Source: Candidatus Methanophagaceae archaeon
Lineage (GTDB): Archaea > Halobacteriota > Syntropharchaeia > Alkanophagales > Methanospirareceae
Length of the DNA: 32,000 nt
Direction of reading: 5' to 3'
NCBI GenBank assembly: GCA_003194425.1
Contig: PQXB01000001.1
Span: 580,444 to 612,443 of the forward strand
Within the stretch, counting starts at the first letter, position 1. Every line of letters begins with the position of its first letter. The translations under genes and the position numbers were made by a program. The notes below the pieces were generated by a model. The model was given only the letters and a program-made list of their open reading frames with translations, was not told where the DNA came from and did no database searches. This document shows, piece by piece, positions 1-32,000 of this stretch.

Positions 1-316
1 GCATCTCCACAGAGGGCTTAACGAGGTTGCGAAGCCAGTCTGGCGAGAATTCCGCCAAATAAATCGCTGCAGGGATGCCTACGGCTGCTGCGAGCACCAA
101 CGCACCGATTCCCACCACGAAAGTGCTCACAACAATCGGGAAAATGCCGAACTGGTCGTGAGAAGGGTGCCAGGTCATTCCAAAGAAAAACTCCCGCCAG
201 CCCAGCGTTAACGCAGGAAAGCCCTCTTTCAGCAGGAATGCGAGGATAAAAAAAACGATAAAAATGGACGAGAGGGCAGAGACGAACAACGCCCACTCTA
301 CTATTTTTTCTCCCAC
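1..316 (-). CDS. pstC: Phosphate ABC transporter permease PstC, N-terminal part (gene runs off the left edge)
   Basis: Absent from the ORF track because it is edge-truncated. My minus-strand translation in the frame that stays open to position 1 gives GEKIVEWALFVSALSSIFIVFFILAFLLKEGFPALTLGWREFFFGMTWHPSHDQFGIFPIVVSTFVVGIGALVLAAAVGIPAAIYLAEFSPDWLRNLVKPSVEM. This fits the PstC pattern (W.P...FGI.P...T, then YL.EF.P.WLR). A candidate GTG start at 316 overlaps the end of the upstream gene. The listed 18..296 ORF is a different, non-protein-like frame. Confidence 0.75.
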   Translation of the reverse strand, partial: MGEKIVEWALFVSALSSIFIVFFILAFLLKEGFPALTLGWREFFFGMTWHPSHDQFGIFPIVVSTFVVGIGALVLAAAVGIPAAIYLAEFSPDWLRNLVKPSVEM

Positions 317-1119
317 ACTAACTCCTGCCCCCCTTTTGAATACATTCTAAATATTTTCATCCCCCATTCTTCTTTTCCTGCTTCTCTTCCTGCTTCTTTT
401 CCTGCTTCTTTTCCTGCTTCTCTTCCTGCTTCTCTTCTTCCCTCGTCCCCCTCGCCCGCCTCGCAGATTTCAATCAGGTTGAACGACGGCGGAATGTTCC
501 ACTTCACCTTGCTACTGCACGCCGTCCCCGCGTTCACTACTGCCGTCCCGTTCAAGTTCCAGACCCACGGCACGTGTTTGTGTCCACAGAGCACGAGGTC
601 GGTCCCGCACCGAAGAAGCAGTTCAAGAACATCTCCTGCGTCTGTCAGAATGTTCCGCTCTCGCCCTGTCTTTGGAACCGAAATTAAATGGTGGTGGAGA
701 GCGACGACCTTAAAACTGTCCGTCCAGTCAGTCGTAAGGCAGCGCTCAATCCACTCATATTTCTCTCTCCCCACGTGCCCCTCGTCCAGGTCAGGCTGTG
801 TAGAATCCACGCCGACAACTGTCACTCCCTTGTGCTGCAGAATCTTCGACCTCGCTCCGAAAATCTCCTCAAAGCAAAGGTCGCCCACGTTCCTCGCGTC
901 GTGATTTCCCGGAACCACCACCTTCACCTCACACTCGATTCTCTCGATGTAACTCTTCGCTCGCACAAACTCTGAATAACTGCCCTCGTTGGTTAAATCG
1001 CCTGTAACTACCACAATCTCTGGCTTTACCTCGTTTATCCTTTTTATCACTTTCTCTGCCAACTCTGGCAGGAAATGCGATTTCCCTGTGTGAATATCCG
1101 AAATGTGCACGATTTTCAT
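301..1119 (-). CDS. Calcineurin-like metallophosphoesterase (no signal peptide), sitting between pstS and pstC
   Basis: 272 aa. Motifs in canonical order are HISDIHTG, VVVTGDLTNEG, PGNHD, ALHHH and CGHKH. ATG at 1119. The C-terminal part carries an EAG[KR] x5 repeat. Confidence 0.85.
   Translation of the reverse strand: MKIVHISDIHTGKSHFLPELAEKVIKRINEVKPEIVVVTGDLTNEGSYSEFVRAKSYIERIECEVKVVVPGNHDARNVGDLCFEEIFGARSKILQHKGVTVVGVDSTQPDLDEGHVGREKYEWIERCLTTDWTDSFKVVALHHHLISVPKTGRERNILTDAGDVLELLLRCGTDLVLCGHKHVPWVWNLNGTAVVNAGTACSSKVKWNIPPSFNLIEICEAGEGDEGRREAGREAGKEAGKEAGREAGKEEWGMKIFRMYSKGGQELVWEKK
377..436. repeat. 12-nt tandem repeat x5 (cctgcttct[c/t]tt) inside the metallophosphoesterase CDS
   Basis: Copies at 377-388, 389-400, 401-412, 413-424 and 425-436. 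They encode REAGREAGKEAGKEAGREAGKE on the minus strand. The unit is a multiple of 3. Confidence 0.95.
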
Positions 1120-1143
1120 TTCCTTTTCCTCTTTTCTTCCTCT

Positions 1144-2256
1144 TCACTTCCTCCTTTTCTCCCTCCCTCTGCGCACCGCGCAGGCTACTCCCGCTACCGC
1201 CAACAAACCTGCAACTCCAAATACCGCGTCAAATCCAGGTTGCGTTGGTGTCGTCGTTGGTGTTTCCGTTGCAGTTGGTCTCGGCGTCGTCTTGGGAGTC
1301 AGTTCAGGTGTTAGCGTCTCCTCAAGCGTCTCCTCAAGCGTCTCCTCAAGCGTCTCCTCAACAGGCAGTTTTATGTAGCCCATTTCGTCCACCACTTCCT
1401 GCCCCTCCTCGCTCAGCACGAAGTCAATGAACGCCGCCTCAAGTTCGCTCGGCGCCCCGTTCGTCACGAGGTACAAGTTCCGCGAGATTGGGTAAGCCCC
1501 AGAGAGCACGTTCTCCTCGGTCGCTGCCACGCCGTCTATTTTGACCGCTTTTACGGACGCGTCAAGGTAGCCGAGAGAGAGGTAGCCAATGCTCCTCTCG
1601 TCGCTACTGACCGTTGCTCTCACTTCGCCGTTCGAGGATTTTACCGCCGCGTTGGCAGCGATTTCCTTCCCAAACGGTTTCAGTACCGCCGTCTCAAAGC
1701 AGTCCCTCGTTCCAGACCCTTCTTCGCGCGTTACTACCCGAATCGCCTCGTCTCGTCCGCCCAGTTCCTTCCAGTTCGTTATTTCGCCTGCGAAGATTTT
1801 CGCTGCCTCTTCCAACTCCAGCCCTTGCCCTTGTCCCTGCCCCTGTTCGCTCACTGGATTGCTCGGATGCAGAACAATCGCCACGCTGTCCTTCCCTACG
1901 ACCACTGGCTTCAAGTTCGGAAACGCCTCCAGCTCTTTCACTTTTACATCCCGCGAGGCTGCGCCGATGTCAATTTCGCCTGCGCCCACTGCTTTTACGC
2001 CGTGTCCCGACCCGCCGCCAGAGACCGATATTCTCAGCTCGGGGTTCTGTTTCATCAGAAGCCTCGCACATTCCTGATTTATCGGTAGCACGGTCGTAGA
2101 ACCCGCGATTGTCAGCTCGCCCGAGAGTCCCGCTGCTTGCGCTGCTTGCGCTGCTCCTGTTGCCGCTGTCGCCACTGCTCCTGTTGCCGCTGTCGCCACT
2201 GCTACTACTGCCGCTGCTACTACTTTCCAAATCCATTTCGCCTTTATTTTCTCCAT
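1144..2256 (-). CDS. pstS: Phosphate-binding protein PstS with N-terminal signal peptide and C-terminal PGF-CTERM-type anchor
   Basis: 370 aa. PBP-like core: GSTTVLPINQ..., SVSGGGSGHGVKAV..GEIDIGAASR, EGSGTR. The N-terminus is hydrophobic. A Thr/Pro-rich linker is followed by PGFDAVFGVAGLLAVAGVACAVRRGREKRRK. Confidence 0.85.
   Translation of the reverse strand: MEKIKAKWIWKVVAAAVVAVATAATGAVATAATGAAQAAQAAGLSGELTIAGSTTVLPINQECARLLMKQNPELRISVSGGGSGHGVKAVGAGEIDIGAASRDVKVKELEAFPNLKPVVVGKDSVAIVLHPSNPVSEQGQGQGQGLELEEAAKIFAGEITNWKELGGRDEAIRVVTREEGSGTRDCFETAVLKPFGKEIAANAAVKSSNGEVRATVSSDERSIGYLSLGYLDASVKAVKIDGVAATEENVLSGAYPISRNLYLVTNGAPSELEAAFIDFVLSEEGQEVVDEMGYIKLPVEETLEETLEETLEETLTPELTPKTTPRPTATETPTTTPTQPGFDAVFGVAGLLAVAGVACAVRRGREKRRK
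1313..1360. repeat. 12-nt tandem repeat x4 (agcgtctcctca) in pstS
   Basis: Perfect copies at 1313, 1325, 1337 and 1349. They encode EETLEETLEETLEETL just before the Thr/Pro linker. Confidence 0.95.
2132..2200. repeat. 9-nt x2 (gctgcttgc) and 24-nt x2 (gctcctgttgccgctgtcgccact) tandem repeats in the pstS signal-peptide region
   Basis: 9-mers at 2132-2149 and 24-mers at 2153-2176 and 2177-2200. They encode AVATAATG AVATAATG AAQ AAQ. Confidence 0.9.
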
Positions 2257-2374: not shown

Positions 2375-3199
2375 TTACCGAAAGAGGTCGTCCTCGCGGT
2401 TGAACAAGACCTCTTTTATGCCCTCGCCTTCCTCTTCCTTACCCTCCTCTTCCTTACCCTCCTCCTCCTTCTCACCCCTCTTACACTTAAACCTCAGCCC
2501 CCGCACGATTGCAATCGGAACGCTCTCCTTAAATTCGCCCATCACGAGATTCGCAGCCGCACAGACCTCGTCTGCCACCGCTTCTTTTGTAATTCTCGCG
2601 ATTCTGCCAAACCTGTCCTCCTCCCCCCTCCTGTCCAGCAGAGCGGGAACGCCAGACCCAGAGACGCCCACGCAGACCCCGGTTACGCCGCTTCTAAACG
2701 CCCTGCCAAAAGAGTCGGAAATTAGAACCGAAATCTCCTTCCCTGTCCTCGCTTCAATTTCCCTCTTAAGCCGCTCTGCACTCCGCTGCGGGTCTTTGGG
2801 CAGCAGAACCGCCCTGCCCTCCTCGACATTTGACTCGTCCACACCCGCGTTTGCACAGACGAACCCGTGCCGTGTCTCCACGATTAGGTTGTTGTTTCTC
2901 ACTCGCACCACCTCTTTTGTGTCGTTGAGGACGAGTTGAACGAGCCGCGGGTCCTTCTCGGTCTCTTCCGCAATCCGCACCGCCTCTGGGGTCGGCTTTA
3001 CGCTTGAAAGGAGAACGACCCGCCCCTCGCTCTTCGCTACTATTTTTGAAGTAACTACTACTGCGTCTCCGTCCTCCAAACTCTCTTTCCTCGCTGCCAA
3101 AGCCGTAAAAAATAAATCTGTCAAGTCGTCGCCCTCTTTTACCTCTGGAAGCCCCTCTACGCCGATTATTTCCAAGCGGTCAAACATTTTCTTCTTCAC
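2375..3199 (-). CDS. cofE: Coenzyme F420:L-glutamate ligase (F420-0:gamma-glutamyl ligase) CofE
   Basis: 274 aa. CofE-like sequence throughout: GLPEVKEGDDL..., DGDAVVVTSKIVAKSEGR, GFVCANAGVDESN, VLISDSFGRAFR.G..GV.VG. The start could be M1 or M5. The C-terminal tail is GEKEEEGKEEEGKEEEGEG. Confidence 0.85.
   Translation of the reverse strand: MKKKMFDRLEIIGVEGLPEVKEGDDLTDLFFTALAARKESLEDGDAVVVTSKIVAKSEGRVVLLSSVKPTPEAVRIAEETEKDPRLVQLVLNDTKEVVRVRNNNLIVETRHGFVCANAGVDESNVEEGRAVLLPKDPQRSAERLKREIEARTGKEISVLISDSFGRAFRSGVTGVCVGVSGSGVPALLDRRGEEDRFGRIARITKEAVADEVCAAANLVMGEFKESVPIAIVRGLRFKCKRGEKEEEGKEEEGKEEEGEGIKEVLFNREDDLFR
2431..2460. repeat. 15-nt tandem repeat x2 (cctcttccttaccct) plus degenerate flanks in the cofE 3' end
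   Basis: Perfect copies at 2431-2445 and 2446-2460. They encode (GKEEE)n. Confidence 0.9.
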
Positions 3200-3417: not shown

Positions 3418-3424
3418 CGGGTGC

Positions 3425-3725: not shown

Positions 3726-3887
3726 ATGAAATTGAAGATAGCGGGATTTGTAGAGAATGTCAGACCCTACGATGTCAGAATAGTCGCCGAGGGCGAAGGG
3801 GCGAGCGTAGACCTGTTCGTTGAGAGGGCGAGGATAAAGAAGAGTGAGGATAAAGAAGAGGACGAGGATAAAGAAGTTTCCGATTGA
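3726..3887 (+). pseudogene. Short ORF resembling the central part of an acylphosphatase-like domain (possible gene remnant)
   Basis: My translation is MKLKIAGFVENVRPYDVRIVAEGEGASVDLFVERARIKKSEDKEEDEDKEVSD. The segment G[FW]V.N....V.IVAEGE...V..F.E.A resembles acylphosphatase. The N-terminal V.G.VQGV.FR phosphate loop is absent, although the frame is open upstream to about 3597. The 3' end carries a gaggataaagaag x3 repeat. Confidence 0.3.
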
Positions 3888-3983: not shown

Positions 3984-4811
3984 ATGGGAAAAGTATTTTT
4001 AGTGGGTGCTGGACCGGGGGACCCCGAGTTGTTAAGTTTGAAGGCGAGTAGGCTCATAAAAGAGGCGGATGTGATTTTGACTGACAACTTGGTCTTTGGA
4101 GTGAAGAAGCAAATTCCAGAGGGCAAGAAAATCGTTGACGTCGGGAAGACCGCAGAGAGGCACAAACTCTCGCAGGACGAAATAAACAGGCTCTTGGTTG
4201 AACTCGCGGTCTCGGGGAAGTACGAGAAGGTAGTGCGGTTGAAGGGCGGAGACCCTTTCATTTTCGGCAGAGGCAGCGAAGAGGCGCTGTTTCTAAAAGA
4301 ACACGGCGTTGATTTTGAGGTGGTGCCGGGAATAAGTTCTGCAGTCGCGGTTCCCGCGGATTTCGGCATTCCGCTTACGCACCGCGGCGTCTCCTCCTCG
4401 GTTACCGTTGTTACGGGGCACGAGCAAGAGAAGGAAGAGAAAGAGGAAGGAGAAGAAGGGAAAGGAGAAGAAGGGAAAGGAGAAGGAGGCGGGCTTGACT
4501 GGGAGGCGGTTGCGAATTTGAGAGGCACGCTCGTAATTTTGATGGGGGCGGGCAACCTTGCCAGGAATGTTGGCAGGCTCTTGAAGCACGGAATGCCTGC
4601 CGAGACGCCTGTTGCGGTGCTTGAGCGAGGCTTCACTTCAGACGCCAGAATTGTAGTCGGCGAACTCGGAAACATCGTGAAATTGGCAAGGCAAGCGAGA
4701 GTGAAACCTCCTGCGGTGGTCGTAGTCGGAGAGGTGGTGAAGGTGAGGGAGAAATTACAAAAATCAAAATCACAAAATCTTGTCGGCTCGCAGAACCTCC
4801 AGGAACCGTAG
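3984..4811 (+). CDS. cobA: Uroporphyrinogen-III C-methyltransferase (SUMT)
   Basis: 275 aa. Matching segments: VFLVGAGPGDPELLSLKA, VVRLKGGDPFIFGRGSEE, FEVVPGISSAVAVPA..GIPLTHRG, SSVTVVTGHE, GTLVILMG. An insertion QEKEEKEEGEEGKGEEGKGEGGG is present. The 3' end overlaps the convergent gene by 42 nt. Confidence 0.9.
   Translation: MGKVFLVGAGPGDPELLSLKASRLIKEADVILTDNLVFGVKKQIPEGKKIVDVGKTAERHKLSQDEINRLLVELAVSGKYEKVVRLKGGDPFIFGRGSEEALFLKEHGVDFEVVPGISSAVAVPADFGIPLTHRGVSSSVTVVTGHEQEKEEKEEGEEGKGEEGKGEGGGLDWEAVANLRGTLVILMGAGNLARNVGRLLKHGMPAETPVAVLERGFTSDARIVVGELGNIVKLARQARVKPPAVVVVGEVVKVREKLQKSKSQNLVGSQNLQEP
4449..4489. repeat. 15-nt tandem repeat (ggagaagaagggaaa) x2 plus a partial third copy in cobA
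   Basis: Perfect copies at 4449-4463 and 4464-4478, and a partial copy at 4479-4489. They encode GEEGK GEEGK GEGG inside a purine-only tract (about 4425-4492). Confidence 0.9.
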
Positions 4812-6164
4812 AACTGAGTAAGCGGCTCTGCTAATTCCCGCGCTCCTCTTCTCCGCGTCGGTTCCCACGGTGTAGAGATTTTTCACGGGCGTCCTCACAT
4901 CGCCGAACCCTGCGTTAATCGCCCAGCACGCCTTCTCTGGCACCAACTCCTGACAGTGCACCATTTCTACCGCCCGCTCAATCCCGGGGACAGTTTTTAG
5001 AATCGCGTCAAACGCCTTTCGCCTCTCTCTTCTCCTCTCTCTTTCGGCGTTGGCTTTGGCGTTGGCTTTGGCGTTGGCTTTGTAGCCCTCGCTCTCGGGC
5101 AGTGAGAAAGTGAAGCCCACGAGTTGCCGACCGTGCGGTGCTAACTTCGGGTCGTAGTTCGAGGTCGGGACGACCCACGCGTAAGGGTCAGAGTCAACCC
5201 ACATTTCCGAGCCGCGGTTCTTAAAAATCTTCCTCGTCAGACCGAGCCAAATCGTCAGTGAATTAACCGCCCGAATTGACCGCAAATTCTCAACGTACTC
5301 CCCCGGCAACTCGCCTCCTTCAATCTCAACCAAGTCTGGCAGACTCGAGGCAGGTCCAGAATAAACCACCGCCTCGCAACTGTAACTGCCCGCCCTCGTA
5401 ACCACTTCCGCAACCTCTCTTTCAGAATTTATTTTTACCACTTCCTCGCCGGTCTTGACTTCTACCCGGTTTTTGGGAAAGGATTTCAGGAGAGAGCCGA
5501 GGAGAGACTGAAGACCGCCTTCGGGGTAGCCCTGGTCTCGGGCGCCTTCCGAGATGAGCAGGTTGTAGATTTTTCCGATGTAGGGGATTGAGTTGGGTTT
5601 GTGGTTTTTGTTGTCGATGAACCGCGAGACGGGGGCGTTCTCAGCAGAGGTGCCGAGCATAAAGTACGAGAGCCAGTCCAAAAATCTTCTGCCCTTTGCT
5701 GAGAGTTTAGCAGGGAGAATTGCACTTATCGGGACTGCCGACAAGTCCTTACCAACGCTCGAGAGGTACAGCACATTGAAGAGCGACTTCATCAGCAGCA
5801 GCCGGTCTTTTGTGGGCAGCAGGTCAAACATCAGCCAGTCCTTAACGCTCCACGGAAACGGCTTGGTTCGCCCGCCAATCCGAACGTAGTAAGTCCCGAA
5901 CGGAACGAACCTCGGAAGAACCGCTGGATCAAAATACCGATTCATCAACTCCCGCAACGGTCCCCGCTCCAGCCTCGTTAGCGCGTGCACGCCAGTGTCA
6001 ACCCAGTAGCCTGGGTAGCCCTCAACCTCGTAAGACCGACAGACGCCCCCGAGAAAATTCTCTTTCTCCAGAACCAAAACCCGCTTTCCTTCCTTCGACA
6101 ACGCTAAAGCGGACAGCAGCCCGCTAATTCCCGCACCTACTACAACGACCCCGTAATCCGTCAT
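4770..6164 (-). CDS. FAD-dependent oxidoreductase, phytoene-desaturase (CrtI/COG1233)-like
   Basis: N-terminal Rossmann motif VVVVGAGISGLLSALALSKEGKRVLVLEK..FLGG, with a length and C-terminal region typical of the family. I prefer the ATG at 6164 (MTDYG...); the ORF track extends to a GTG at 6179. Substrate cannot be assigned. Confidence 0.7.
   Translation of the reverse strand: MTDYGVVVVGAGISGLLSALALSKEGKRVLVLEKENFLGGVCRSYEVEGYPGYWVDTGVHALTRLERGPLRELMNRYFDPAVLPRFVPFGTYYVRIGGRTKPFPWSVKDWLMFDLLPTKDRLLLMKSLFNVLYLSSVGKDLSAVPISAILPAKLSAKGRRFLDWLSYFMLGTSAENAPVSRFIDNKNHKPNSIPYIGKIYNLLISEGARDQGYPEGGLQSLLGSLLKSFPKNRVEVKTGEEVVKINSEREVAEVVTRAGSYSCEAVVYSGPASSLPDLVEIEGGELPGEYVENLRSIRAVNSLTIWLGLTRKIFKNRGSEMWVDSDPYAWVVPTSNYDPKLAPHGRQLVGFTFSLPESEGYKANAKANAKANAERERRRERRKAFDAILKTVPGIERAVEMVHCQELVPEKACWAINAGFGDVRTPVKNLYTVGTDAEKRSAGISRAAYSVLRFLEVLRADKIL
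5046..5081. repeat. 12-nt tandem repeat x3 (ggcgttggcttt) in the oxidoreductase CDS
   Basis: Copies at 5046, 5058 and 5070. They encode KANAKANAKANA. Confidence 0.95.
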
Positions 6165-7169: not shown

Positions 7170-7229
7170 CCAATCCTCTCCCCTTTATTTTTCATCCCTG
7201 CTTAAACTTTTATGTAATTATAAAATATT

Positions 7230-7287
7230 AGCCGTGCCGAGCTTAGCCGTGCCGAGCTTAGCCGTGCCGAGCTTAGCCGTGCCGAGC
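7230..7287. repeat. Intergenic 15-nt tandem repeat x3.9 (agccgtgccgagctt)
   Basis: Perfect copies at 7230, 7245 and 7260, and a partial copy at 7275-7287. The array ends 13 nt before the ATPase ATG (7301) and lies downstream of the A/T-rich tatgtaattataaaatatt. Confidence 0.95.
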
Positions 7288-9130: not shown

Positions 9131-9175
9131 GGGAGCGGAAAATGTGGGAGCGGAAAATGTGGGAGCGGAAAAGTG
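9131..9175. repeat. 15-nt tandem repeat x3 (gggagcggaaaatgt) spanning the start region of the FlaJ-like gene
   Basis: Units at 9131, 9146 and 9161; the third is gggagcggaaaagtg. Units 1 and 2 each supply a ggag SD-like element and an in-frame GTG (9144, 9159). Confidence 0.95.
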
Positions 9176-10019: not shown

Positions 10020-10045
10020 GGTAAAAAACAACTACTAAACAACTA

Positions 10046-20763: not shown

Positions 20764-20791
20764 CTACTCGTACCGCTCTACTCGTACCGCA
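20764..20791. repeat. 14-nt tandem duplication (ctactcgtaccgc[t/a] x2) straddling the stop codon of permease 1
   Basis: Copies at 20764-20777 and 20778-20791. The copy inside the CDS contains the stop (20778-20780) and the last codons (AVRYE*). The second copy lies in the 3' flank. Confidence 0.9.
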
Positions 20792-21968: not shown

Positions 21969-21986
21969 TTTCAAACCTCCCTTCTT

Positions 21987-22031
21987 CCCCGCTACCCCAC
22001 TCCCCGCTACCCCACTCCCCGTCACCCCACT
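21987..22031. repeat. Intergenic 15-nt tandem repeat x3 (ccccg[c/t][t/c]accccact) between the two permease genes
   Basis: Copies at 21987, 22002 and 22017. Confidence 0.9.
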
Positions 22032-22034
22032 ACC

Positions 22035-23255: not shown

Positions 23256-23318
23256 TTTAGGGAAAGGGAAGAGAAATGGAAAAGAAGTTTAGGGAAGGGA
23301 AGAGAAATGGAAAAGAAG
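23256..23318. repeat. 32/31-nt tandem duplication of the ribosome-binding/start region of the downstream gene
   Basis: The copies are tttagggaaagggaagagaaATGgaaaagaag (23256-23287) and tttagggaagggaagagaaATGgaaaagaag (23288-23318). The ATGs at 23276 and 23307 are 31 nt apart, so they are out of frame. Confidence 0.95.
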
Positions 23319-23786: not shown

Positions 23787-23798
23787 GTTAGCCGAGAA

Positions 23799-23871
23799 TG
23801 CGCCGGCCGGGATTTGAACCCGGGTTAGGGGCTTGGCAAGCCTCTGTGATACCAGGCTACACTACCGGCGC
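23799..23871 (-). tRNA. tRNA-Gly (anticodon GCC)
   Basis: The minus strand reads GCGCCGG-TA-GTGTAGCCTGGTATCAC-A-GAGGC-TTGCCAA-GCCCC-TAAC-CCGGG-TTCAAAT-CCCGG-CCGGCGC-A. The acceptor stem (7 bp) and T stem (5 bp) pair perfectly, and the T-loop is TTCAAAT. The anticodon loop is TT-GCC-AA. There is one A-C mismatch in the anticodon stem. No CCA is encoded. Confidence 0.85.
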
Positions 23872-24042
23872 ATATTTTTATTTATTGTCTCTTGAAATTT
23901 TGCTCCAATAAAGAAAGACTCACCCTTCGTCCTTATTTCAAAACGTGGCAGGAGTGAAGACTGATCAATTATCGACTCTACAAGAGGTAAAGGCTTCTCT
24001 TTCAGGTTTTTTCTATTCATTTATGCCTCCTTTCCTCCCCCT

Positions 24043-25437
24043 TTACACTATCTCAAAATCCTCCCCTAGCTTCGGTGCTACCGCCTCGCACCCGCAGTTC
24101 TCCCGCGCCCACGCCGCGAACTCCTCAGTCCGCTCGCCGTGAACCATAAAAACAACCTCCGTCCCGTTCCTGCAGAACCGCGAGACGAGCTCCTTTAGCT
24201 CCGAGTCGCCTGCGTGAGCCGAGAAGTCGTACTGCTCCACCTGCGAACGCACTTTCAGCACCTCGCCGTCCGCGTCCACGCAGCTCTCCTCAACCAGCCT
24301 CCGCCCGTTCGTGCCTTCAATCTGGTAGCCAGTAAGCAGGATTTTGCTCTTCGGGTCGTCGTACGTCCGCTTCAAATAGTACAGCACAGGACCGCCGTTG
24401 AGCATTCCTGCAGTGGTAACAATTACCGACGGCTTGGCGAGGGATTTCTTACGCTTCCGCGAATTCACGAACTCCGAGTCGCCGAACGCCGCGTTCAACG
24501 CCTTCGCATTCTTTAAGAACGACGGGTGGTTCTTGAACAGCCCAAAAACAGCCAGCCCCATTCCGTCAACAAAAGGCGTCAGCCCGTGCGAGTGCAGAAT
24601 CATTACGATCTCCTGCGTCCTTCCCACCGCAAAGCACGGCACAATCGCAGTGCCACCCGCGTTGAGTGTCTCTTTAACAGAATCTACGAACTCCTTTTCT
24701 AATTCCCGCCTGTCCCTGTGGTCTTTGCCGTAGTAAGTACTCTCGATGAGCAGAATGTCAGCGGCAGGGAAATCGTCTGGCGACGCACTCTTCATCAGCC
24801 GAGACGGGCCCGTTTTCGTGTCGCCCGTGTAAAACAGGCTTATTTCCTCGTCCTTTGCCTCTTTCTTCAAATGAATTCCCGAACTGCCCGGAATGTGTCC
24901 CGCGTTGTGCAACTCAAGATCGTAGTCCCCGCTGCCGTTCAACGCGACCCGCTCCCCGTAAGCAAGCGTCTGCGTCTTCTCGCCCAGCCACTTTACTTCT
25001 TCTTCGCCGAAGAGAGAAAAGCCCTGGTCTTTTCCAACTTTTATCGTGTCCCTGCTCAAGAGCTGTGCCAAGTCGCTCGTCACCGAAGTCATAAAAACCT
25101 CCGGCCCTGCTCCTCCAGACACTCCAGACACTCCAGACCCTCGCCCGCTCCCGCTTCCTGCCTTTCCGCTTCTACTCCTTCTTTTCCTTCGCTCTCCCTT
25201 TCCTGCTCCCGTTCCTGCTCTAACAGCCGAAGCCATCAAACTCGGAACCATTCCTGAGTGGTCAAGGTGTGCGTGTGAGATGACGACCGACTCTGGCGAA
25301 AATGTCCCCCCTCCGTTCGTCAGCGGAACCTCTGGCGGGTCCGACGGCCTGAGCCCGTAGTCCAAAACTATTTTCTCGTCTACCAAAATCGCAGACCGAC
25401 CTACCTCGTTGCAACCTCCAAGAAATTTTAACTTCAT
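24043..25437 (-). CDS. Metallo-beta-lactamase / beta-CASP family ribonuclease (aCPSF2-like, no KH domains)
   Basis: 464 aa. Matching segments: MKLKFLGGCNEVGRSAILV, VVISHAHLDHSGMVP, beta-CASP and C-terminal motifs (FSAHAG, MVHGE). A basic/Gly-Ser insertion reads GTGAGKGERRKRRSRSGKAGSGSGRGSGVSGVSGGAG. Confidence 0.8.
   Translation of the reverse strand: MKLKFLGGCNEVGRSAILVDEKIVLDYGLRPSDPPEVPLTNGGGTFSPESVVISHAHLDHSGMVPSLMASAVRAGTGAGKGERRKRRSRSGKAGSGSGRGSGVSGVSGGAGPEVFMTSVTSDLAQLLSRDTIKVGKDQGFSLFGEEEVKWLGEKTQTLAYGERVALNGSGDYDLELHNAGHIPGSSGIHLKKEAKDEEISLFYTGDTKTGPSRLMKSASPDDFPAADILLIESTYYGKDHRDRRELEKEFVDSVKETLNAGGTAIVPCFAVGRTQEIVMILHSHGLTPFVDGMGLAVFGLFKNHPSFLKNAKALNAAFGDSEFVNSRKRKKSLAKPSVIVTTAGMLNGGPVLYYLKRTYDDPKSKILLTGYQIEGTNGRRLVEESCVDADGEVLKVRSQVEQYDFSAHAGDSELKELVSRFCRNGTEVVFMVHGERTEEFAAWARENCGCEAVAPKLGEDFEIV
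25113..25139. repeat. 9-nt tandem repeat x3 (ctccagac[a/c]) in the beta-CASP gene
   Basis: Copies at 25113, 25122 and 25131. They encode GSGVSGVSG within a C/T-rich tract (about 25140-25215). Confidence 0.9.
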
Positions 25438-25478: not shown

Positions 25479-26048
25479 TTATTTAACTTCCGTCTTCGTA
25501 ATTTCCACCCTTCGCAGCGGGTAAACCTTCTTCGCAGCCTTGTAAATCTCGGACGACAACTTACCAAGAATTATTTCCTGCACAAGTTTGCCGAGTTCCA
25601 GGCTGCTCGCCCGCTTTGCAATTGTCTCCTGCATAATTTTTCGGATTAATTTTTTCTGCGTCCCGCTTGCTTTTCGCAGCGTGAAAGAAGACGACTTCAC
25701 GGACAACTCCTGCCCGTCTTTCGTCAGGACCTCAACCTTTGAATCCACCTTTGAAATCCCCTTCCTCGCTAAACTCCGCAAGTAACCGTTGTCCATTTTA
25801 TGCCCCTCAAATTTTGTGTAAGCGGTGTTCTGCCCTACTTCTTTCACTACTAACAGCAGTTTCAAGTTGGAACCCCGTATCAGTTTGCCTGTAACCTCGT
25901 CCAGTCCCAACTCAATTCTCCGTCCGATTAAGTTAGCGGGGTCGTCTGTCACGGTCTCCCCCGCGTTTACTTCGCCAAACATCTTCGGCGCTAACACCTT
26001 GTACCACTCTTTCGCTTTCCACTTATCTTTTAGTCTTCTCTTTACCAC
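25479..26048 (-). CDS. rps3ae: 30S ribosomal protein S3Ae (eS1)
   Basis: 189 aa. KDKWKAKEWYKVLAPKMFGE...ETV.DDP..LIGRRIE..L..VTG is characteristic of archaeal S3Ae. GTG start. Confidence 0.9.
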   Translation of the reverse strand: MVKRRLKDKWKAKEWYKVLAPKMFGEVNAGETVTDDPANLIGRRIELGLDEVTGKLIRGSNLKLLLVVKEVGQNTAYTKFEGHKMDNGYLRSLARKGISKVDSKVEVLTKDGQELSVKSSSFTLRKASGTQKKLIRKIMQETIAKRASSLELGKLVQEIILGKLSSEIYKAAKKVYPLRRVEITKTEVK

Positions 26049-26099: not shown

Positions 26100-27068
26100 T
26101 TAAAAGTCTTTTAGAAAGTACTGCAAGACCGACTCAAAAATCAGTCTCCCGTCTCCGTTCTCCTTCCTCCCTTCCCTTTCCTTTTCCCCTTTTCTTTCCC
26201 CTTCCCTTTCCCGCCTTTCCCCTTCCCTTCCCCGCCTTTCCCCTTCCCTTCCCCGCGCTCTCGTCCACTCAGAGTCGGTAAAAGCGAAAAACGCCCGCTC
26301 AGGGTGTGGCATTAGCCCAAAAATGTTGCCCTCGGGGTTGCAGATTCCCGCGATGTTAGAGAGCGAGCCGTTGGGGTTCCAGGGGTAGCCCGCGTAATTT
26401 CCTACGGGGTCAACGTAGCGGAAAACAATCTGGTCGTTCTCCTCCAGACGCCGCAGGTACTCCTCCCGCTCCCTCTCCCGCTCCCTCTCCCTTCCCCCTC
26501 CTTCTCTGCCCGCCACAACAAACTTCCCCTCCGCGTGAGCGCACGGCATTTTCAGGACGCTCCCTCTCTCTACCGCTCGCGTGAAAACGCAGTTCCCTCT
26601 GCTCTCGTGCTTCAGAAGCGTTGGACGGCACTCAAACCGAGCGGAATCGTTCGTCGTCAGTGCCGCCTGCTGCTGCGTTGCACCTTCAAAACCAGGAAGC
26701 AGCCCCAGCTCCACCAAGACCTGAAAGCCGTTGCAAATTCCCAAGACAGGCTTTCCACTCTCTGTAAATCCCTCAATTTCGCGACCCAGCGCGCCTTTCA
26801 GCCTCGCAGCGAGAATCGCCCCCGCCCGCACGTAGTCTCCAGCAGAGAAACCGCCGGGAATCACCAACAGGTCGTAATCTTCCAAACTCCGCCGCTCTCG
26901 CTCTTTCACCCGCCCTGCCCGCTCTTTCACCCGCCCTGCCCCAGCCCTCTCCAACTGCTTAAGGTGCACGATTTCTACCGACGCACCCAGCCGCTTAAAA
27001 GCTAAGGCTGTCTCGAGTTCGCAGTTTGTTCCTTCAATCCGCAGGACGCAGATTTTCGGTGCTTTCAT
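26100..27068 (-). CDS. purQ: Phosphoribosylformylglycinamidine synthase, glutamine amidotransferase subunit PurQ
   Basis: Matching segments: KICVLRIEGTNCE, LVIPGGFSAGDY.RAGAI, PVLGICNGFQVL.E.GLLPG, AHAEG.F, YP.NPNGS...IAGI.N..GN.FGLMPHPER. At 322 aa it carries three separate low-complexity repeat insertions. Confidence 0.9.
   Translation of the reverse strand: MKAPKICVLRIEGTNCELETALAFKRLGASVEIVHLKQLERAGAGRVKERAGRVKERERRSLEDYDLLVIPGGFSAGDYVRAGAILAARLKGALGREIEGFTESGKPVLGICNGFQVLVELGLLPGFEGATQQQAALTTNDSARFECRPTLLKHESRGNCVFTRAVERGSVLKMPCAHAEGKFVVAGREGGGREREREREREEYLRRLEENDQIVFRYVDPVGNYAGYPWNPNGSLSNIAGICNPEGNIFGLMPHPERAFFAFTDSEWTRARGREGERRGREGERREREGERKGEKEREGRKENGDGRLIFESVLQYFLKDF
26212..26253. 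repeat. 21-nt tandem repeat x2 (cgcctttccccttcccttccc) in the purQ 3' region
   Basis: Perfect copies at 26212-26232 and 26233-26253 inside a longer C/T tract (about 26160-26265). The region encodes RGREGERRGREGERREREGERKGEKEREGRK. Confidence 0.95.
26463..26486. repeat. 12-nt tandem repeat x2 (ctcccgctccct) in purQ
   Basis: Copies at 26463-26474 and 26475-26486. They encode part of GGREREREREREE. Confidence 0.9.
26901..26942. repeat. 21-nt tandem repeat x2 (ctctttcacccgccctgccc[g/c]) in the purQ 5' region
   Basis: Copies at 26901-26921 and 26922-26942. They encode AGRVKER AGRVKER. Confidence 0.95.
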
Positions 27069-27085
27069 CTTTTCTTAGGTTTAAT

Positions 27086-27952
27086 TTATATCGGTATCGG
27101 CAGTTTAATTCCCAATCCGTTCCTTATCATCACCCAACCCATATAGAGCATCACAGCGATGAACACATATCGCAACTGTTTCGCAGGCAATCTATGCGCA
27201 GCTCTGACGCCTACCTGTGCCATCGGCACGCTCGTTGCTGCGAGCAGAATCCACGATTCGAGGTTCATGTATCCCAGCATGTGAAGATTGTGGAACACGA
27301 AGGGTATGCCCGCTTTCAAGCCGTTGTAGATGTAGCCAATGAGTCCACCGATGGCGGTGAATATCATCAGTGCGGTGGAAGTGCCAACTGCGCGGTGTAT
27401 TCCGAATGACAGCGCAACCACCATTACCGGTATCATAAGCACGCCACCGCCTATGCCGATGATGCCAGTAACGATGCCGAGCGGAATGCCCCAAAGAATC
27501 CATAACAGCGGATTGTCCACGGGCTTCTTTCCGGTAACCTCAGGCGGTTTCGCCGTGAGCATTCTGAGCGCACCGGCAATGATCGCGGAGCCGAAGGCTA
27601 TACTCAGAATCCAGCCCAATTCCTTTTCCACGAGCGTCGCTGCGATGGTCGCACCAATGACCGCTCCTGCTGCGCCAGATACGCCGAGAAAAATCGCCGC
27701 TTTCCACCATACCGCGTCCTTCTTCGTATGCCCATAAGCGCCACTCGCTGCTGTCGGAAGCACCACGAACAGGTTTGTGCCGAAGGCAATTGCCACTGCG
27801 GTATTGAATGGTATTCCCAGAGCTGTATATGCCCAGACCTGAACGGGAATCATAATGAAACAACCGCCGACACCGAGTAGTCCACTTGCAAATCCCACGC
27901 CGAGTCCGGTAATTAGCAGCACGATTGCCGCTATAAAAAAAGATACAGGCAT
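27086..27952 (-). CDS. TauE/SafE (TSUP) family anion-exporter-like membrane protein
   Basis: 288 aa with about 8 TM segments. The duplicated signature GLLGVGGCFIMIPV / GIIGIGGGVLMIPV is typical of TSUP proteins. Confidence 0.8.
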   Translation of the reverse strand: MPVSFFIAAIVLLITGLGVGFASGLLGVGGCFIMIPVQVWAYTALGIPFNTAVAIAFGTNLFVVLPTAASGAYGHTKKDAVWWKAAIFLGVSGAAGAVIGATIAATLVEKELGWILSIAFGSAIIAGALRMLTAKPPEVTGKKPVDNPLLWILWGIPLGIVTGIIGIGGGVLMIPVMVVALSFGIHRAVGTSTALMIFTAIGGLIGYIYNGLKAGIPFVFHNLHMLGYMNLESWILLAATSVPMAQVGVRAAHRLPAKQLRYVFIAVMLYMGWVMIRNGLGIKLPIPI

Positions 27953-28198: not shown

Positions 28199-28224
28199 GG
28201 AGGTTGTGTTTGGAGGTTGTGTTT
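28199..28224. repeat. 13-nt tandem duplication (ggaggttgtgttt x2)
   Basis: Copies at 28199-28211 and 28212-28224. The unit is not a multiple of 3. It lies in the poorly coding region between the TauE and flavodoxin genes. Confidence 0.9.
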
Positions 28225-28577: not shown

Positions 28578-29042
28578 CTACTCGGCGTCCTCGAACGCAG
28601 GCTCGAGCTCTCCGTCAACCTTGAACCCCTCGGCAACGACCTCAGCACAGCACTTCTTTAGCACCTCCTTAAGAGAGTCCACTGCCACGCAGAACGAGTC
28701 CGGGTACTCCTCGCTGTCGCCCGGACCAAAGACCGCTACCTTCTTTCCCGCGAGCGAAATTCCACTCCCGTCTCCGCTCCCGTCTCCGCTCCCTTCCCCA
28801 GTCCCTTTCCCTTTCAACGCTTCGTAGAAGTTCACGAAGTCATCCTGCAGGTCGCCCTCACCCCAGGTGGAGCAGCCAAAGACAACCGCGTCGTAACCCG
28901 CGAGTTCGTCAACGCTCGTCTCTGCCACGTTCTTCACCGTAACGCTCGCCATTCCGCGCTCGAGCCCCGCTGCCACGTGCTCGGAGAGCATTTCCGTGTT
29001 CCCTGTCGTCGAGCCAAAAACCAAAATTACCTTCTTCGCCAT
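28578..29042 (-). CDS. Flavodoxin (short-chain type)
   Basis: 154 aa. Matching segments: KKVILVFGSTTGNTE (FMN phosphate loop), YDAVVFGCSTWGEGDLQDDF, KKVAVFGPGDSE.YPD.FC.AVD. An insertion GKGTGEGSGDGSGDGSG is present. Confidence 0.9.
   Translation of the reverse strand: MAKKVILVFGSTTGNTEMLSEHVAAGLERGMASVTVKNVAETSVDELAGYDAVVFGCSTWGEGDLQDDFVNFYEALKGKGTGEGSGDGSGDGSGISLAGKKVAVFGPGDSEEYPDSFCVAVDSLKEVLKKCCAEVVAEGFKVDGELEPAFEDAE
28764..28787. repeat. 12-nt tandem repeat x2 plus a partial copy (ctcccgtctccg) in the flavodoxin gene
   Basis: Copies at 28764-28775 and 28776-28787. They encode GSGDGSGDGSG. Confidence 0.9.
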
Positions 29043-29420: not shown

Positions 29421-29609
29421 ATGCGTCAAAAGATACTTTTGACGGCGGCTCTTCTCTTCGCCGTTGCAGCGGCGGTGGCAGCAGGAGGAGTCGCACCAGC
29501 GACCGCAGCCGCGAACGCAAACATCGTAGTAACCAAGGTCGCACCAACCGACCTTTCACCAGGCGAGACGAAAGAGGTAACGCTGACCGTGAAGAAACAG
29601 GTCTTTTAG
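29421..29609 (+). CDS. Short ORF: signal peptide plus the first strand(s) of an S-layer/CARDB-like domain (probable truncated surface-protein gene)
   Basis: MRQKILLTAALLFAVAAAVAAGGVAPATAAANANIVVTKVAPTDLSPGETKEVTLTVKKQVF*. This is a clear Sec-type signal followed by the usual opening of CARDB/COG1361-type domains (P..L.PGE...V.L.V.N), which stops after 62 aa. I prefer the ATG at 29421 over the GTG at 29313. Confidence 0.4.
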   Translation: MRQKILLTAALLFAVAAAVAAGGVAPATAAANANIVVTKVAPTDLSPGETKEVTLTVKKQVF

Positions 29610-29634
29610 GATTTTGTAAAAGGAAAAAGTGCGA

Positions 29635-32000
29635 CTAATCTTTTCTCACTCTTAAGAGAGCCGCTGCAAGCACCACGCTCAACACCCCAACCAACCCGAG
29701 CAAGCCGAAGAGGTTGAACTCCGGCACCGGTAGTGGTGGGCTACCCGGACCTCCCGGATCTACGATTACCCCGTTTGCTGTGCCGTCGCTGTCTCCCAAC
29801 CCGCCGTCTACGAGCCTTATCTTTATCTCATCGTCGCCGTCGTCGCCGCTTCCGTCTACCACCGGTATTTGAACCCACCCGCCCTCTGCAGCGTGGTATT
29901 TCCAGTACTGCGTCCCTACGGGAGCGTCGCTCGGCAGTGTAATCGTAACCGCTACTGTTTGACCCGGTGTGAGCCCGGTTACGTTGAGCGAGAAGAATCC
30001 GTGCTTGAAGTCAAGGTTTGGCTTGCCTTCTTCCGGTAACTGCGCCTCTTCTACCGCTTCTAAATCCTCTATTCTACCGTCGGCAACCTCGAAATATGCC
30101 GTGCCAGAGCCTGTGGCTGTTTCCACTGCCTCCTCTCGCGGCACCGTACTCACTCTCGCTGCACCCTCCGCAAAGACGGACTCCCCGCAGAACTCACCAC
30201 TAACATTCGCAGTGTTTCTGTCCTCGCCTTCTTCTACTACTGTCGCGTTAAACTCGATGCTCAGGTTCTCGCAGTATTTTAGCTCAAGCGGCGGGAACGA
30301 CCACCTACATTCTTTCCCCACCACGGTTGGCTCCACCGCTGCTACTGTTCCGTTTGGATACCGAACCGTTGCGTCGCCTGCCTCGTAGGTCAGGCTCTCC
30401 GAGAGAATGTCCTTTACCAGAATATTGGAGAGGTTGCAGGTCTCGTTCTCGTAGCGGTTGTGCAGCCAAATTCTGAACCGCACGGTCTCGTTGACACGAA
30501 CAGTGCTCTCGCTCGCCCATTCCACGCTCGTCTCGTTGAAGACTGTTTTGGTTACTTCTATTCTTGGCTTTGTCGGCGGCGGTCCCGGGGCGTCTATTCT
30601 TAAATTCGTGCTGTCTGTCCCCGTTAATCCGTCGTTGTCCATTACTTTAAGAGAGACAACGCCGGAATACGCAGCGTCCCAAGTCTTCGACGGCTTCGCA
30701 CCAACAGCGTCGTCAAACTCGCCGTCGTCGTCAAAGTCCCATTTATAACTTTCTATCCTCCCGTCCGCGTCGTAAGAACCCGTGCCGTCAAAAACTACTG
30801 GAACTCCGACAACACCTGTGTAGGGTCCGTTTGCGTCTGCTACTGGCGGCTCCCCCGAGCCGGCCTCAGCGTCAAAATACTCCGCTCCCGAGACAAGCGC
30901 CGTCAAACCGCTCCCGTTTAAATCCGCGTAAAACCCGTAAACCACCGCGTGCACTCCGCTCGTGCCGGTCAAAAGCGTCCTGCTCACTTCTATTTCTGTC
31001 TCGCCTGCTCGCAGCGACTCGTTCTGCTCAAATTCGTCCAGTAACTCGTCCTCAGCGTTGTAAATCTCTGTCCTCAACCGCCCGCCGCTGCCCCCTGAAA
31101 CATTCCGGTTTGACTCTATTTTCAACTTCAGCTCCAAATCCTCCCCTGAAATATATTCTTCCTTATCCAAACTCACTTCCAAAATCCGCGCAGAAAAGCC
31201 GACGACGTCAAAGGGGTGCGCAGAAGAGTAGTTCCCGAACGCGTAGTCAACATAGTAAGTCCCGGACCGCAGTTCGGCGGGCAGCGTGAATTCCAGCGTC
31301 CTCGGACCGTTAACGGTGTCGTTGAAGGTGTAGCCCGGCGCCGTCAGGTTCAACTCGTCTGTCCTCGTAACATCCACTATTTCTATCTTCACATTCTCGC
31401 CCATTTTGTAAACATCCTTCTCCGTGTACAACCGCAACGGAACCCCCGCCTTCTTCTCGTAGACATAAATTGAGTTGAGGTAAAGCGCCCTGCCAGAGTC
31501 GGTGTAGACGGAGTAGAGCATTTTATTGTCGCCCGTGAAGTTAGCAGGCACATTAAAAGTCAGCGTTTTAGACGCAAAACCGGTTAGGTTGAACCCAGTC
31601 GTGTTCTCGTACTCCCCGAACTTCACCCTCGAATACAAACTCAAATCCATATTCCTGTTGTTCTTCACATCCAGTCTCAGCACCGCCACCTCGCCTTCTT
31701 CGTACAACTTCTTGTCCAGCGACGCGTTAACCGAAATGTTCGCACCCTGCACCAAGTAAACGAACTCTCCTCGCTCTCCTCCGCCGTCCAACAACTCGTA
31801 AATCCCCTTGTACCGCTTCTCCTCCAAGTCGTCGGGAATTGTAAAGTTGAAGCTGACATTCTCCTCCGCGCCCGCTCTCACCCAAGTCCTGTTCGTCTCC
31901 TCAAAGTCCGCGACCGAGAGTTTTAACTCCGCCTCGCCTTCCGAACCGCCCTCGTTCTTTACGCAGAAGACGAGTGTAACATTCTCGCCGAGAGTGAAAT
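29635..32000 (-). CDS. Large cell-surface protein (CARDB/Ig-like repeats, PKD domain, DUF11-like domain) with C-terminal PEF-CTERM-type anchor; 5' end beyond the right edge
   Basis: The frame is open to position 32000 (my translation upstream of 31881 is FTLGENVTLVFCVKNEGGSEGEAELKLSVADFEETNRTWV...), so the M at 31881 is not the start. The PKD domain reads ANGPYTG..GVPVVFDGTGSYDADG.IESYKWDFDDDG. The DUF11-like region reads IEVTKTV...VRFRIWLHN...ILVKDILSESLTYEAGDA. Many N-x-S/T sequons are present. The C-terminus is DPGGPGSPPLPVPEFNLFGLLGLVGVLSVVLAAALLRVRKD. Confidence 0.85.
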   Translation of the reverse strand, partial: FTLGENVTLVFCVKNEGGSEGEAELKLSVADFEETNRTWVRAGAEENVSFNFTIPDDLEEKRYKGIYELLDGGGERGEFVYLVQGANISVNASLDKKLYEEGEVAVLRLDVKNNRNMDLSLYSRVKFGEYENTTGFNLTGFASKTLTFNVPANFTGDNKMLYSVYTDSGRALYLNSIYVYEKKAGVPLRLYTEKDVYKMGENVKIEIVDVTRTDELNLTAPGYTFNDTVNGPRTLEFTLPAELRSGTYYVDYAFGNYSSAHPFDVVGFSARILEVSLDKEEYISGEDLELKLKIESNRNVSGGSGGRLRTEIYNAEDELLDEFEQNESLRAGETEIEVSRTLLTGTSGVHAVVYGFYADLNGSGLTALVSGAEYFDAEAGSGEPPVADANGPYTGVVGVPVVFDGTGSYDADGRIESYKWDFDDDGEFDDAVGAKPSKTWDAAYSGVVSLKVMDNDGLTGTDSTNLRIDAPGPPPTKPRIEVTKTVFNETSVEWASESTVRVNETVRFRIWLHNRYENETCNLSNILVKDILSESLTYEAGDATVRYPNGTVAAVEPTVVGKECRWSFPPLELKYCENLSIEFNATVVEEGEDRNTANVSGEFCGESVFAEGAARVSTVPREEAVETATGSGTAYFEVADGRIEDLEAVEEAQLPEEGKPNLDFKHGFFSLNVTGLTPGQTVAVTITLPSDAPVGTQYWKYHAAEGGWVQIPVVDGSGDDGDDEIKIRLVDGGLGDSDGTANGVIVDPGGPGSPPLPVPEFNLFGLLGLVGVLSVVLAAALLRVRKD

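Follow-up and report, generated by a model that had tools for sequence, protein, structure and literature searches.

Pervasive perfect tandem repeats, in genes as well as in intergenic DNA, are known from the Borg elements of Methanoperedens (Schoelmerich et al., 2023; PMC9879509). Counted as perfect arrays of at least 3 units and at least 50 nucleotides (nt), they cover 0.62% of a Borg on average (range ~0.3–1%), against at most 0.01% of the Methanoperedens host genomes, from whose chromosomes they are virtually absent; repeat units inside open reading frames (ORFs) are all divisible by 3, as opposed to 14–38% of intergenic units, and the most frequent codons in the amino-acid repeats are CCA (Pro) and ACA (Thr) (PMC9879509). 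The repeats were presented as a hallmark of Borgs, and the question whether enzymes of the host or of the element produce them was not settled (PMC9879509). Prokaryotic low-complexity regions in general grow by proliferation of short repeats (Persi et al., 2023; PMC10120016), a trend described in a survey that did not include anaerobic methanotrophic archaea of group 1 (ANME-1) and reported no extreme single-lineage outlier. Here we analysed a 32,000-nt stretch of Candidatus Methanophagaceae DNA (contig PQXB01000001.1, positions 580,444 to 612,443; hereafter the window), most of whose genes, core enzymes included, carry head-to-tail repeats. These pervasive, frame-filtered repeats in a cellular ANME-1 chromosome are a new chromosomal example of a known phenomenon. 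No prior description of such repeats in ANME-1 was found by full-text literature searches, and a 2026 paper on ANME-1 structural variation drops variants of 50 base pairs (bp) or less.

The window belongs to the chromosome of a Guaymas-type ANME-1 (Methanophagaceae, 'ex4572_4'-like) and is neither a mobile element nor a Borg or other extrachromosomal replicon, because it encodes ribosomal protein S3Ae, ArgG, PurQ, CofE, CobA and tRNA-Gly, shares its gene order near S3Ae, PurQ and beta-CASP with other ANME-1 genomes, and is part of a 1,187,124-bp contig of a metagenome-assembled genome (MAG). By exact-sequence look-up its proteins are PXF51382–PXF51403 of a 'Candidatus Methanophagaceae/Methanophagales archaeon' MAG, and their nearest relatives include 'ANME-1 cluster archaeon ex4572_4' from the Guaymas Basin (PMC5569505).

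Borg tandem repeats are the closest known case, and the repeats of the window work like them without being a Borg feature. In both, perfect repeats stand head-to-tail within genes and between them, and under the Borg criterion 3 arrays cover 0.63% of the window, next to the Borg mean of 0.62%; the same criterion gave 0% for 51 loci of other ANME-1 species and 0.04% for Methanoperedens and other loci. In-ORF units are all divisible by 3 and intergenic ones only in a minority (27% in the window). Unit number varies in populations or among close relatives, and homologues lack the repeats. The products are disordered and rich in disorder-promoting residues. Two further Borg features are matched less clearly: partial copies flank the arrays (at least 5 nt in 13 of 29 two-copy arrays of the window, compared with 2% by chance), but two clean new duplications have 0–1 nt; and the coding strand of the repeats is depleted in T and enriched in purines and A, but G is enriched as well and intergenic units are mixed in composition. 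Unlike Borg repeats, those of the window interrupt a cellular chromosome with its S3Ae, ArgG, PurQ, CofE and CobA genes; its arrays are shorter (mostly 2–4 copies, 16–80 nt), enriched in G and A rather than mainly in A, and encode E/G/A-rich peptides rather than favouring CCA and ACA codons, and cytoplasmic housekeeping enzymes are affected as readily as extracellular proteins.

The chromosome of Ehrlichia ruminantium reportedly contains many actively variable short tandem repeats that differ between strains, and it would share with the window the setting of a cellular prokaryote chromosome, strain-variable copy number and active duplication and deletion. It is said to differ in being that of an obligate intracellular bacterial pathogen, with mostly intergenic repeats of larger unit size, and we know of no in-frame inserts in most of its housekeeping enzymes. 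Housekeeping proteins of Plasmodium falciparum carry low-complexity insertions which, like those described here, are lineage-specific, hydrophilic, fast-evolving, made by slippage and tolerated in enzyme surface loops; unlike them, they occur in a eukaryote and show an AT-driven Asn/Lys bias.

Repeat excess and reading frame

Tandem Repeats Finder (TRF) reported 98 rows of tandem repeats in the window. Our own finder, which accepts perfect periodicity only (period 4–60, with a minimum of 2 copies and 16 nt) and underlies all density figures, returned 36 arrays covering 3.8% of the bases, with arrays in 15 of the 24 coding sequences (CDSs; Table 1). Unit sizes in CDSs are 9, 12, 15, 18, 21 and 24 nt, and those outside CDSs or at stop codons are 5, 8, 10, 11, 13, 14, 17, 20 and 31 nt. 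Among the peptides encoded are EAGK, EETL, KEEEG, GEEGK, KANA, GSK, (AE/TE)n, GETGEA, GSGD, AVATAATG and GIV. With the perfect-repeat finder no arrays were detected in the window's CaCA, TauE, S3Ae, FtsX2, DUF2124 and PIN genes.

Unit length is a multiple of 3 in each of the 25 arrays wholly contained in ORFs, but in only 3 of the 11 outside ORFs or across their ends (Fisher exact test, 25:0 versus 3:8, p = 5e-6), the latter fraction (27%) being consistent with a neutral one-third. Since a frameshifting repeat terminates an ORF, the absence of other unit lengths from ORFs is partly circular; the strain comparisons below reach the same point without ORF calls. The number of arrays is far above chance. 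Shuffling codons within each gene gave 0.45 expected in-ORF arrays (maximum 3 in 200 shuffles), and shuffling within blocks of 20 or 10 codons gave 2.0 (maximum 6 in 200) and 3.3 (maximum 9 in 200), respectively, compared with the 25 observed; outside ORFs, 11 arrays were observed and ~0.4 expected. Array density was 0.90/kb inside ORFs and 2.7/kb outside, i.e. ~3-fold denser outside. One third of the outside rate predicts ~25 in-ORF arrays, the number observed, albeit from small numbers; on account of this match, the data are consistent with most in-frame events at tolerant positions being nearly neutral.

An earlier interpretation of the window made from its letters and ORF translations (the sequence-only reading) had claimed tandem repeats in most protein genes, with multiple-of-3 units in CDSs, other lengths only between genes, at stop codons or in broken frames, and none in polytopic membrane cores (CaCA, TauE) or S3Ae. 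The repeats proved real and well above chance, the unit sizes and peptides it listed match the output of the finder and TRF, and both the frame split and the repeat-free genes were recovered, as were the repeats it noted in signal-peptide and anchor regions (AVATAATG and GIV).

Lineage specificity, placement and copy number

For comparison, 80 loci were collected from GTDB species representatives by an S3Ae profile scan, whose best match was 75% identical and which did not return the window's own species. The finder gave 1.125 perfect arrays/kb in the window (32 kb) and 0.99/kb in loci of the same species (233 kb, partly redundant), against 0.18/kb in the 51 loci of other ANME-1 species (675 kb) and 0.11/kb in 29 Methanoperedens and other loci (425 kb). 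For arrays of at least 24 nt the corresponding values were 0.875, 0.69, 0.028 and 0.04/kb, so that such arrays are 25–30 times rarer in the 80 orthologous loci of other ANME-1 and Methanoperedens species. G60ANME1 and AOM70-1, which we take to be thermophilic ANME-1, reached 0.58–0.68 arrays/kb, nearly all of them shorter than 24 nt; thermophily was rejected as a cause because these two are only mildly elevated.

Same-species regions outside the window contained 10–14 arrays per 8.5 kb. Length outliers among GatE proteins were mostly N-terminal annotation extensions; only one (P0400) had internal inserts, and it led to an unlinked contig (L099) from the same sample as contig L085. Judged by its G+C content (53.8%) and tetranucleotide usage (r = 0.95–0.96 with same-species loci), this contig probably belongs to the window's species. 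Over 11.3 kb it has 8 arrays that reach 24 nt or more; of the 9 arrays within its genes, 8 have a unit length that is a multiple of 3. We conclude that high repeat density is a trait of one species-level lineage and not common to ANME-1, and that, from the flanking regions and the one unlinked contig, the trait appears to reach beyond the window.

The repeats sit in low-confidence loops, linkers or tails of the proteins. Aligned to Thermotoga PurQ (3d54), the window's PurQ forms three aligned blocks, with the repeat regions in query-only segments (~24–59, 184–218 and 261–303). The (AE/TE)n tract of ArgG comprises 28 residues between two domains, against 4 in Thermus ArgG (1j1z); CobA has a 16-residue insertion at GEEGK relative to 2ybq; flavodoxin has 19 residues at the GSGD repeat against 3 in 3f6r; and the CofE repeat forms a C-terminal tail, at and past the end of the alignment to 2phn. 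The inserts thus stand where solved homologues have loops of 2–5 residues. In the AlphaFold2 model of PurQ, the inserts have predicted local distance difference test (pLDDT) scores of 42–57, which fits disordered regions, and the well-folded core parts exceed 90. The repeat segments were found in none of 47 PurQ and 50 beta-CASP orthologues of other ANME-1 species, cut from the panel loci, and a database search for PurQ homologues had the same outcome. In the same PurQ loops, unrelated repeats have arisen separately in other ANME-1 lineages, namely TTTSTGTTTSTGTGTG (L021) and EAETEAETETKTEAET (P0268/P0269), and the GatE proteins P0396 and P0400 have unrelated repeat inserts (GTGIGTGTG); the tendency is therefore present, though weaker, in other parts of the order.

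Copy number was compared over 16 contigs, syntenic with the window and taken from independent assemblies of its species, with 97–99% nucleotide identity and 404 variable sites over 28,597 covered positions. Of the 29 arrays spanned by 2–10 strains, 22 vary in length, nearly always by exact multiples of the unit. Strain-to-strain indels inside intact genes are nearly all multiples of 3. The exceptions are a +1 in the gene for the 1332-aa protein, indels at gene ends and in the frameshifted T2SSE gene, those in the region 21995–22035, which is probably upstream of the true FtsX1 start, and a few short indels that offset one another where PstS and the amine oxidoreductase diverge and the alignment is ambiguous. 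Several segments that are single-copy in the window are perfectly or near-perfectly duplicated in other strains (+21 nt in the PIN gene, and +12, +27, +22, +9 and +13 nt); the process therefore creates repeats as well as resizing old ones. Protein clusters at 90% identity gave a concordant picture: every internal indel in ArgG (4 or 8 aa), PurQ (7, 4 and 7 aa at three sites), CobA (5 aa) and CofE (5 aa) falls on a repeat and amounts to whole units, except for a single-residue gap within the CofE repeat in two members. The one full-length flavodoxin relative has one extra 4-aa unit.

Copy-number polymorphism had been predicted by the sequence-only reading, and the whole-unit variation in 22 of 29 arrays between near-identical strains agrees with it. 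The checks made along the lines it proposed came out in the same direction, since the PurQ and beta-CASP repeats are missing from ANME-1 orthologues, and the PurQ, ArgG, CobA and flavodoxin repeats are insertions and the CofE repeat a C-terminal tail relative to known structures. One of its refuting conditions, that the arrays are assembly artefacts, is countered by their recurrence, discussed below.

Origin of the repeats

Repeats inside CDSs consist of 34% A, 46.5% G, 14% C and 5% T on the coding strand, compared with 24% A, 33% G and 21% T in all CDSs, which corresponds to 81% versus 58% purine. They encode 25% E, 21% G and 19% A, plus R, K, T and S, and no P, H, F, Y, W or M. Intergenic units are mixed in composition and not uniformly purine-rich, and purine richness as a mutational signature was discarded for that reason.

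Most likely, an unusually active tandem duplication or slippage process operates everywhere in this DNA, and selection retains those products that keep the reading frame and add small or charged residues. In all of the DNA of the species, segments of 5–31 nt would undergo head-to-tail duplication and later copy-number change unusually often, probably through slipped replication, template switching or faulty processing of lagging-strand flaps. Purifying selection would remove frame-shifting copies, hydrophobic or bulky residues, and hits in folded or membrane cores; the survivors in genes would be in-frame, purine-rich, low-complexity inserts rich in E/G/A/K/R in surface loops, domain linkers and tails, and repeats of any unit length could persist outside genes. 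The primary cause is taken to be mutational because repeats outside genes are denser, of arbitrary unit length and mixed in composition, turnover is rapid, single-copy alleles are frequent and the enzymes affected are unrelated. That intergenic arrays are ~3 times denser and only 27% of them have units divisible by 3 argues for mutation followed by a filter rather than for mutation biased towards such units. The composition of the in-gene repeats and their avoidance of membrane cores and S3Ae are exactly what tolerance filtering predicts. The sequence-only reading had arrived at active duplication filtered by frame and structural tolerance, and the frame split, the loop placement and the strain variation bear it out. 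We infer a raised mutation rate, and not selection for the inserts, as the driver; any naming of a responsible enzyme is of the same standing.

Several observations weigh against this interpretation. The species is represented by only about 60 kb, comprising the window with its flanks and a single unlinked contig, and coverage under the Borg criterion is 0.14% in the pooled same-species loci against 0.63% in the window; because the window was chosen as repeat-rich, its density may be somewhat above the genome mean. Copy numbers are those of consensus assemblies of short reads and not of the reads themselves. Flanking microhomology is limited to 0–1 nt in the two clean new duplications that could be resolved. 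The in-CDS composition is strongly non-random (E/G/A/K/R-rich and T-depleted), and independent inserts occupy the same PurQ loops (TTTSTG... in L021, EAETEAET... in P0268/P0269). These last two points would suit repeats that are adaptive, with selection favouring charged disordered loops (for solubility, thermal or pressure adaptation, or condensates and interactions) and regulatory intergenic repeats at an ordinary mutation rate, and a comparable case for function has been made by the Borg authors (PMC9879509). Tolerance filtering alone, however, predicts the composition bias, because codons with T in second position encode hydrophobic residues. Repeats that are 3 times denser outside ORFs, with arbitrary unit lengths and mixed composition, are not what selection for loops would leave, the unrelated housekeeping enzymes affected have no shared function, and most arrays are polymorphic in near-identical strains, with single-copy alleles common (8 of 9 strains do not have the PurQ AGRVKER duplication). 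We therefore consider adaptation improbable as the origin of the repeats.

That the repeats or their copy-number differences arise from assembly or binning of short-read metagenomes is a concern because tandem repeats are known to mis-assemble (PMC9879509; PMC6868369) and two NCBI MAGs (L097, L098) have gaps at repeat sites. The same arrays nevertheless occur at identical sites in more than 15 independent assemblies from different samples (SPAdes, MEGAHIT, Logan and NCBI MAGs), at 16–80 nt they are below read size, they differ by clean whole units within otherwise 97–99% identical sequence, and other ANME-1 MAGs made by the same methods do not contain them, which makes an artefact very unlikely. 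Still harder to credit is an ordinary background, whereby any purine-loaded archaeal genome rich in low-complexity sequence would have as many arrays by chance. The coding strand is indeed 58% purine, and local low-complexity composition lifts the chance expectation ~7-fold, from 0.45 to 3.3 arrays; even the most local shuffle, however, falls well short of the 25 observed, orthologous loci have 25–30-fold fewer arrays of at least 24 nt, and copy-number polymorphism shows the arrays to be dynamic.

If filtered tandem duplication is accepted, the unit spectrum, mostly 9–24 nt, resembles that of template-switch slippage or of duplications in flap-endonuclease deficiency. Deficiency of rad27/FEN1 in yeast reportedly yields mostly ~5–100-bp tandem duplications, often flanked by short direct repeats; this would be the same unit size class, unlike the 1–4-nt instability of mismatch-repair loss. 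It is a mechanistic analogy only, from which the window's species departs in having some new duplications without microhomology. The 0–1 nt in the two clean duplications also means that simple microhomology-primed slippage cannot account for every event, and it was rejected as the sole mechanism. Microsatellite instability from loss of mismatch repair was rejected since the dominant units are 9–24 nt, with a few 1–2-nt slips such as the +2 CA at 8177; contingency loci or phase variation, since in-ORF units are all divisible by 3 and scattered over housekeeping enzymes, with only 21986–22035, upstream of FtsX1, behaving as a hypervariable non-coding tract; and arrays of clustered regularly interspaced short palindromic repeats (CRISPR), since the repeats stand head-to-tail without spacers and Rfam finds only a tRNA. 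A tentative proposal, which we hold to be rather unlikely, is that one ANME-1 lineage has entered a heritable tandem-duplication mutator state through changed replication or lagging-strand machinery (e.g. PolD/PolB, FEN1, PCNA or ligase). If it were true, Borg-style repeat formation would stem from the enzymes of archaeal hosts rather than from the elements, and comparison of sister genomes, repeat-rich against repeat-poor ANME-1, could name the responsible gene.

An ANME-1 chromosome thus shows a Borg-like repeat regime that extends to core enzymes, and dozens of related ANME-1 species do not. Repeat-rich and repeat-poor ANME-1 offer a natural comparison for the replication or repair determinant of archaeal tandem duplication, and the repeat-bearing proteins are a natural experiment in how ArgG, PurQ, SUMT, CofE and flavodoxin tolerate low-complexity insertions. 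In practical terms, the repeats break assemblies, and many variants in the 90%-identity clusters differ only in unit number and so inflate apparent protein diversity; the repeats could also act as strain markers for an uncultured lineage. Scaffold gaps (runs of N) in the NCBI MAGs L097 and L098 (8933, 11906, 13900 and others) coincide with repeat sites; short-read assembly thus seems to fail where the repeats are polymorphic.

Arrays, genes and strain differences

Table 1. Tandem arrays of the window. Length differences are those of same-species strains or cluster members relative to the window; a dot marks arrays without strand.
Position	Strand	Unit and copies	Location (peptide)	Detected by	Variation and remarks
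369–437	-	12-nt x5.8	metallophosphoesterase (EAGK/REAG)	TRF, finder	-12 nt alleles
1313–1361	-	12-nt x4.1, perfect	PstS-like protein (EETL)	TRF, finder	+36, -12, -24 nt
2131–2224	-	9-nt (AAQ) and 24-nt (AVATAATG)	PstS-like protein, N-terminal end	TRF, finder	+24, +33 nt
2430–2470	-	15-nt x2.7	CofE C-terminal tail (KEEEG)	TRF, finder	5-aa unit gain in P0047
3424–3560	.	20-nt x5.4 and 5-nt, pyrimidine-rich	intergenic, CofE/CobA	TRF, finder	79 nt perfect; counted under Borg criterion; -5 nt alleles
3823–3876	.	16–18-nt x3, imperfect	intergenic, upstream of CobA	TRF	-34, +10 nt
4447–4489	+	15-nt x2.9	CobA/SUMT (GEEGK)	TRF, finder	270- vs 275-aa alleles
5041–5082	-	12-nt x3.4	amine oxidoreductase (KANA)	TRF, finder	+12, +24 nt
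7228–7287	.	15-nt x4.0, perfect	intergenic, upstream of T2SSE	TRF, finder	-15, -30 nt
9131–9177	+	15-nt x3.2	junction of ~940-nt deletion	TRF	in relatives inside second T2SSF gene (protein 341, 346 or 351 aa)
9367–9399	+	9-nt x3.7	FlaJ/T2SSF-like gene (ESA)	TRF, finder	
10022–10049	.	11-nt x2.1	between convergent stop codons	TRF, finder	
10617–10645	-	9-nt x3.2, perfect	HcyBio/COG1900 (GSK)	TRF, finder	
11801–11834	.	17-nt x2.0, perfect	across stop codon of papain-PKD gene	TRF, finder	-17 nt
12762–12779	-	9-nt x2	papain-PKD protein (CKG)	TRF, finder	
14854–14924	-	6/12/24-nt	ArgG, between N- and C-terminal domains ((AE/TE)n)	TRF, finder	409-, 413-, 417-aa alleles
15668–15741	-	9/18-nt	1332-aa protein (GETGEA)	TRF, finder	+/-9, -18 nt; counted under Borg criterion
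19378–19402	-	12-nt x2.1	1332-aa protein (EVRA)	TRF, finder	-12 nt in 2/4 strains
19453–19474	-	9-nt x2.4	1332-aa protein, N-terminal anchor (GIV)	TRF, finder	
20578–20594	.	8-nt x2.1	intergenic	TRF, finder	-8 nt
20762–20790	.	14-nt x2.1	across FtsX1 stop codon	TRF, finder	+14 nt in 3/4 strains
21986–22035	.	15-nt x3.3, hypervariable	between FtsX2 stop and probable FtsX1 start	TRF, finder	+1 to +45 nt
23256–23318	.	31-nt x2.0, purine-rich	intergenic, upstream of DUF2124	TRF	-32 nt
25113–25142	-	9-nt x3.3	beta-CASP, inside ~27-aa insert (SGV)	TRF, finder	-9 nt in 2/10 strains
26194–26256	-	21-nt x3.0	PurQ (RRGREGE)	TRF, finder	-21, -42 nt in 9/10 strains; pLDDT 42–55
26463–26506	-	6/12-nt	PurQ ((RE)n)	TRF, finder	-12 nt in 7/9 strains
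26899–26941	-	21-nt x2.0, perfect	PurQ (AGRVKER)	TRF, finder	single copy in 8/9 strains
28199–28224	.	13-nt x2.0, perfect	intergenic	TRF, finder	-13 nt
28761–28793	-	12-nt x2.8	flavodoxin (GSGD)	TRF, finder	4-aa allele in P0043
29087–29238	.	15-nt x2.0 and 10-nt x2.0, perfect	intergenic	TRF, finder	
29831–29848	-	9-nt x2	PKD protein (GDD)	TRF, finder	

Pfam matches on the window's ORFs, with which the gene assignments of the sequence-only reading agree, comprise a metallophosphoesterase, a PstS-like PBP with PGF-CTERM, CofE, CobA/SUMT, an amine oxidoreductase, CaCA, T2SSE/T2SSF, COG1900 HcyBio+CBS, papain+PKD, ArgG, the 1332-aa NosD/CbiX/FmdE protein, PIN, two FtsX/MacB proteins, DUF2124, beta-CASP, S3Ae, PurQ, TauE, flavodoxin and a PKD protein. 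A tRNA-Gly(GCC) at 23798–23872 (-) is the only Rfam or ARAGORN match in the window. The start of S3Ae (25479–26048, -) is annotated differently across records, giving 189 or 201 aa for an otherwise identical gene.

The T2SSE/FlaI-like ATPase gene (7301–9054, +) is split into ORFs of 319 and 267 aa by an extra CA at ~8177, and four same-species strains have an intact 583-aa gene. At 9130/9131 the window is missing ~940 nt that are present in relatives (L093:3245–4185), namely one T2SSF gene and the start of the next, and the deletion junction abuts the 15-nt repeat at 9131–9177. Because of the frameshift and the deletion, the pilus- or archaellum-like locus looks degraded in the window's strain. 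Since relatives call a protein of 396 aa and not 415 aa, FtsX1 probably starts at 21968 rather than 22025, so that the 15-nt array would lie upstream of the gene. This tract is the most length-variable site among 7 strains, and could affect expression of the downstream permease. On these two arrays the sequence-only reading needed correction: the one at 21986–22035 is probably located upstream of FtsX1, and the one at 9131–9177 belongs to a T2SSF gene that has been truncated.

Flavodoxin (28578–29042, -) is intact in the window; several strains are missing residues ~59–119, which include the GSGD loop, and the shortened gene is annotated there as fragments of 61 and 34–40 aa (L083:6357–6537, L086:3402–3624, L087:3010–3232). 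Most strains have a Usp gene and a gene with a PF04060 FeS domain between TauE and PurQ (L084:2013–3054), which are absent from the window (27068–27086) and from L090. The region 15570–20242, with the PIN gene and the 1332-aa NosD/beta-helix/CbiX/FmdE protein, is absent from L084 and L085, and the large protein has 1247 aa in L083; the region looks like a strain-variable island. In relatives, a VapB antitoxin gene adjoins the PIN gene.

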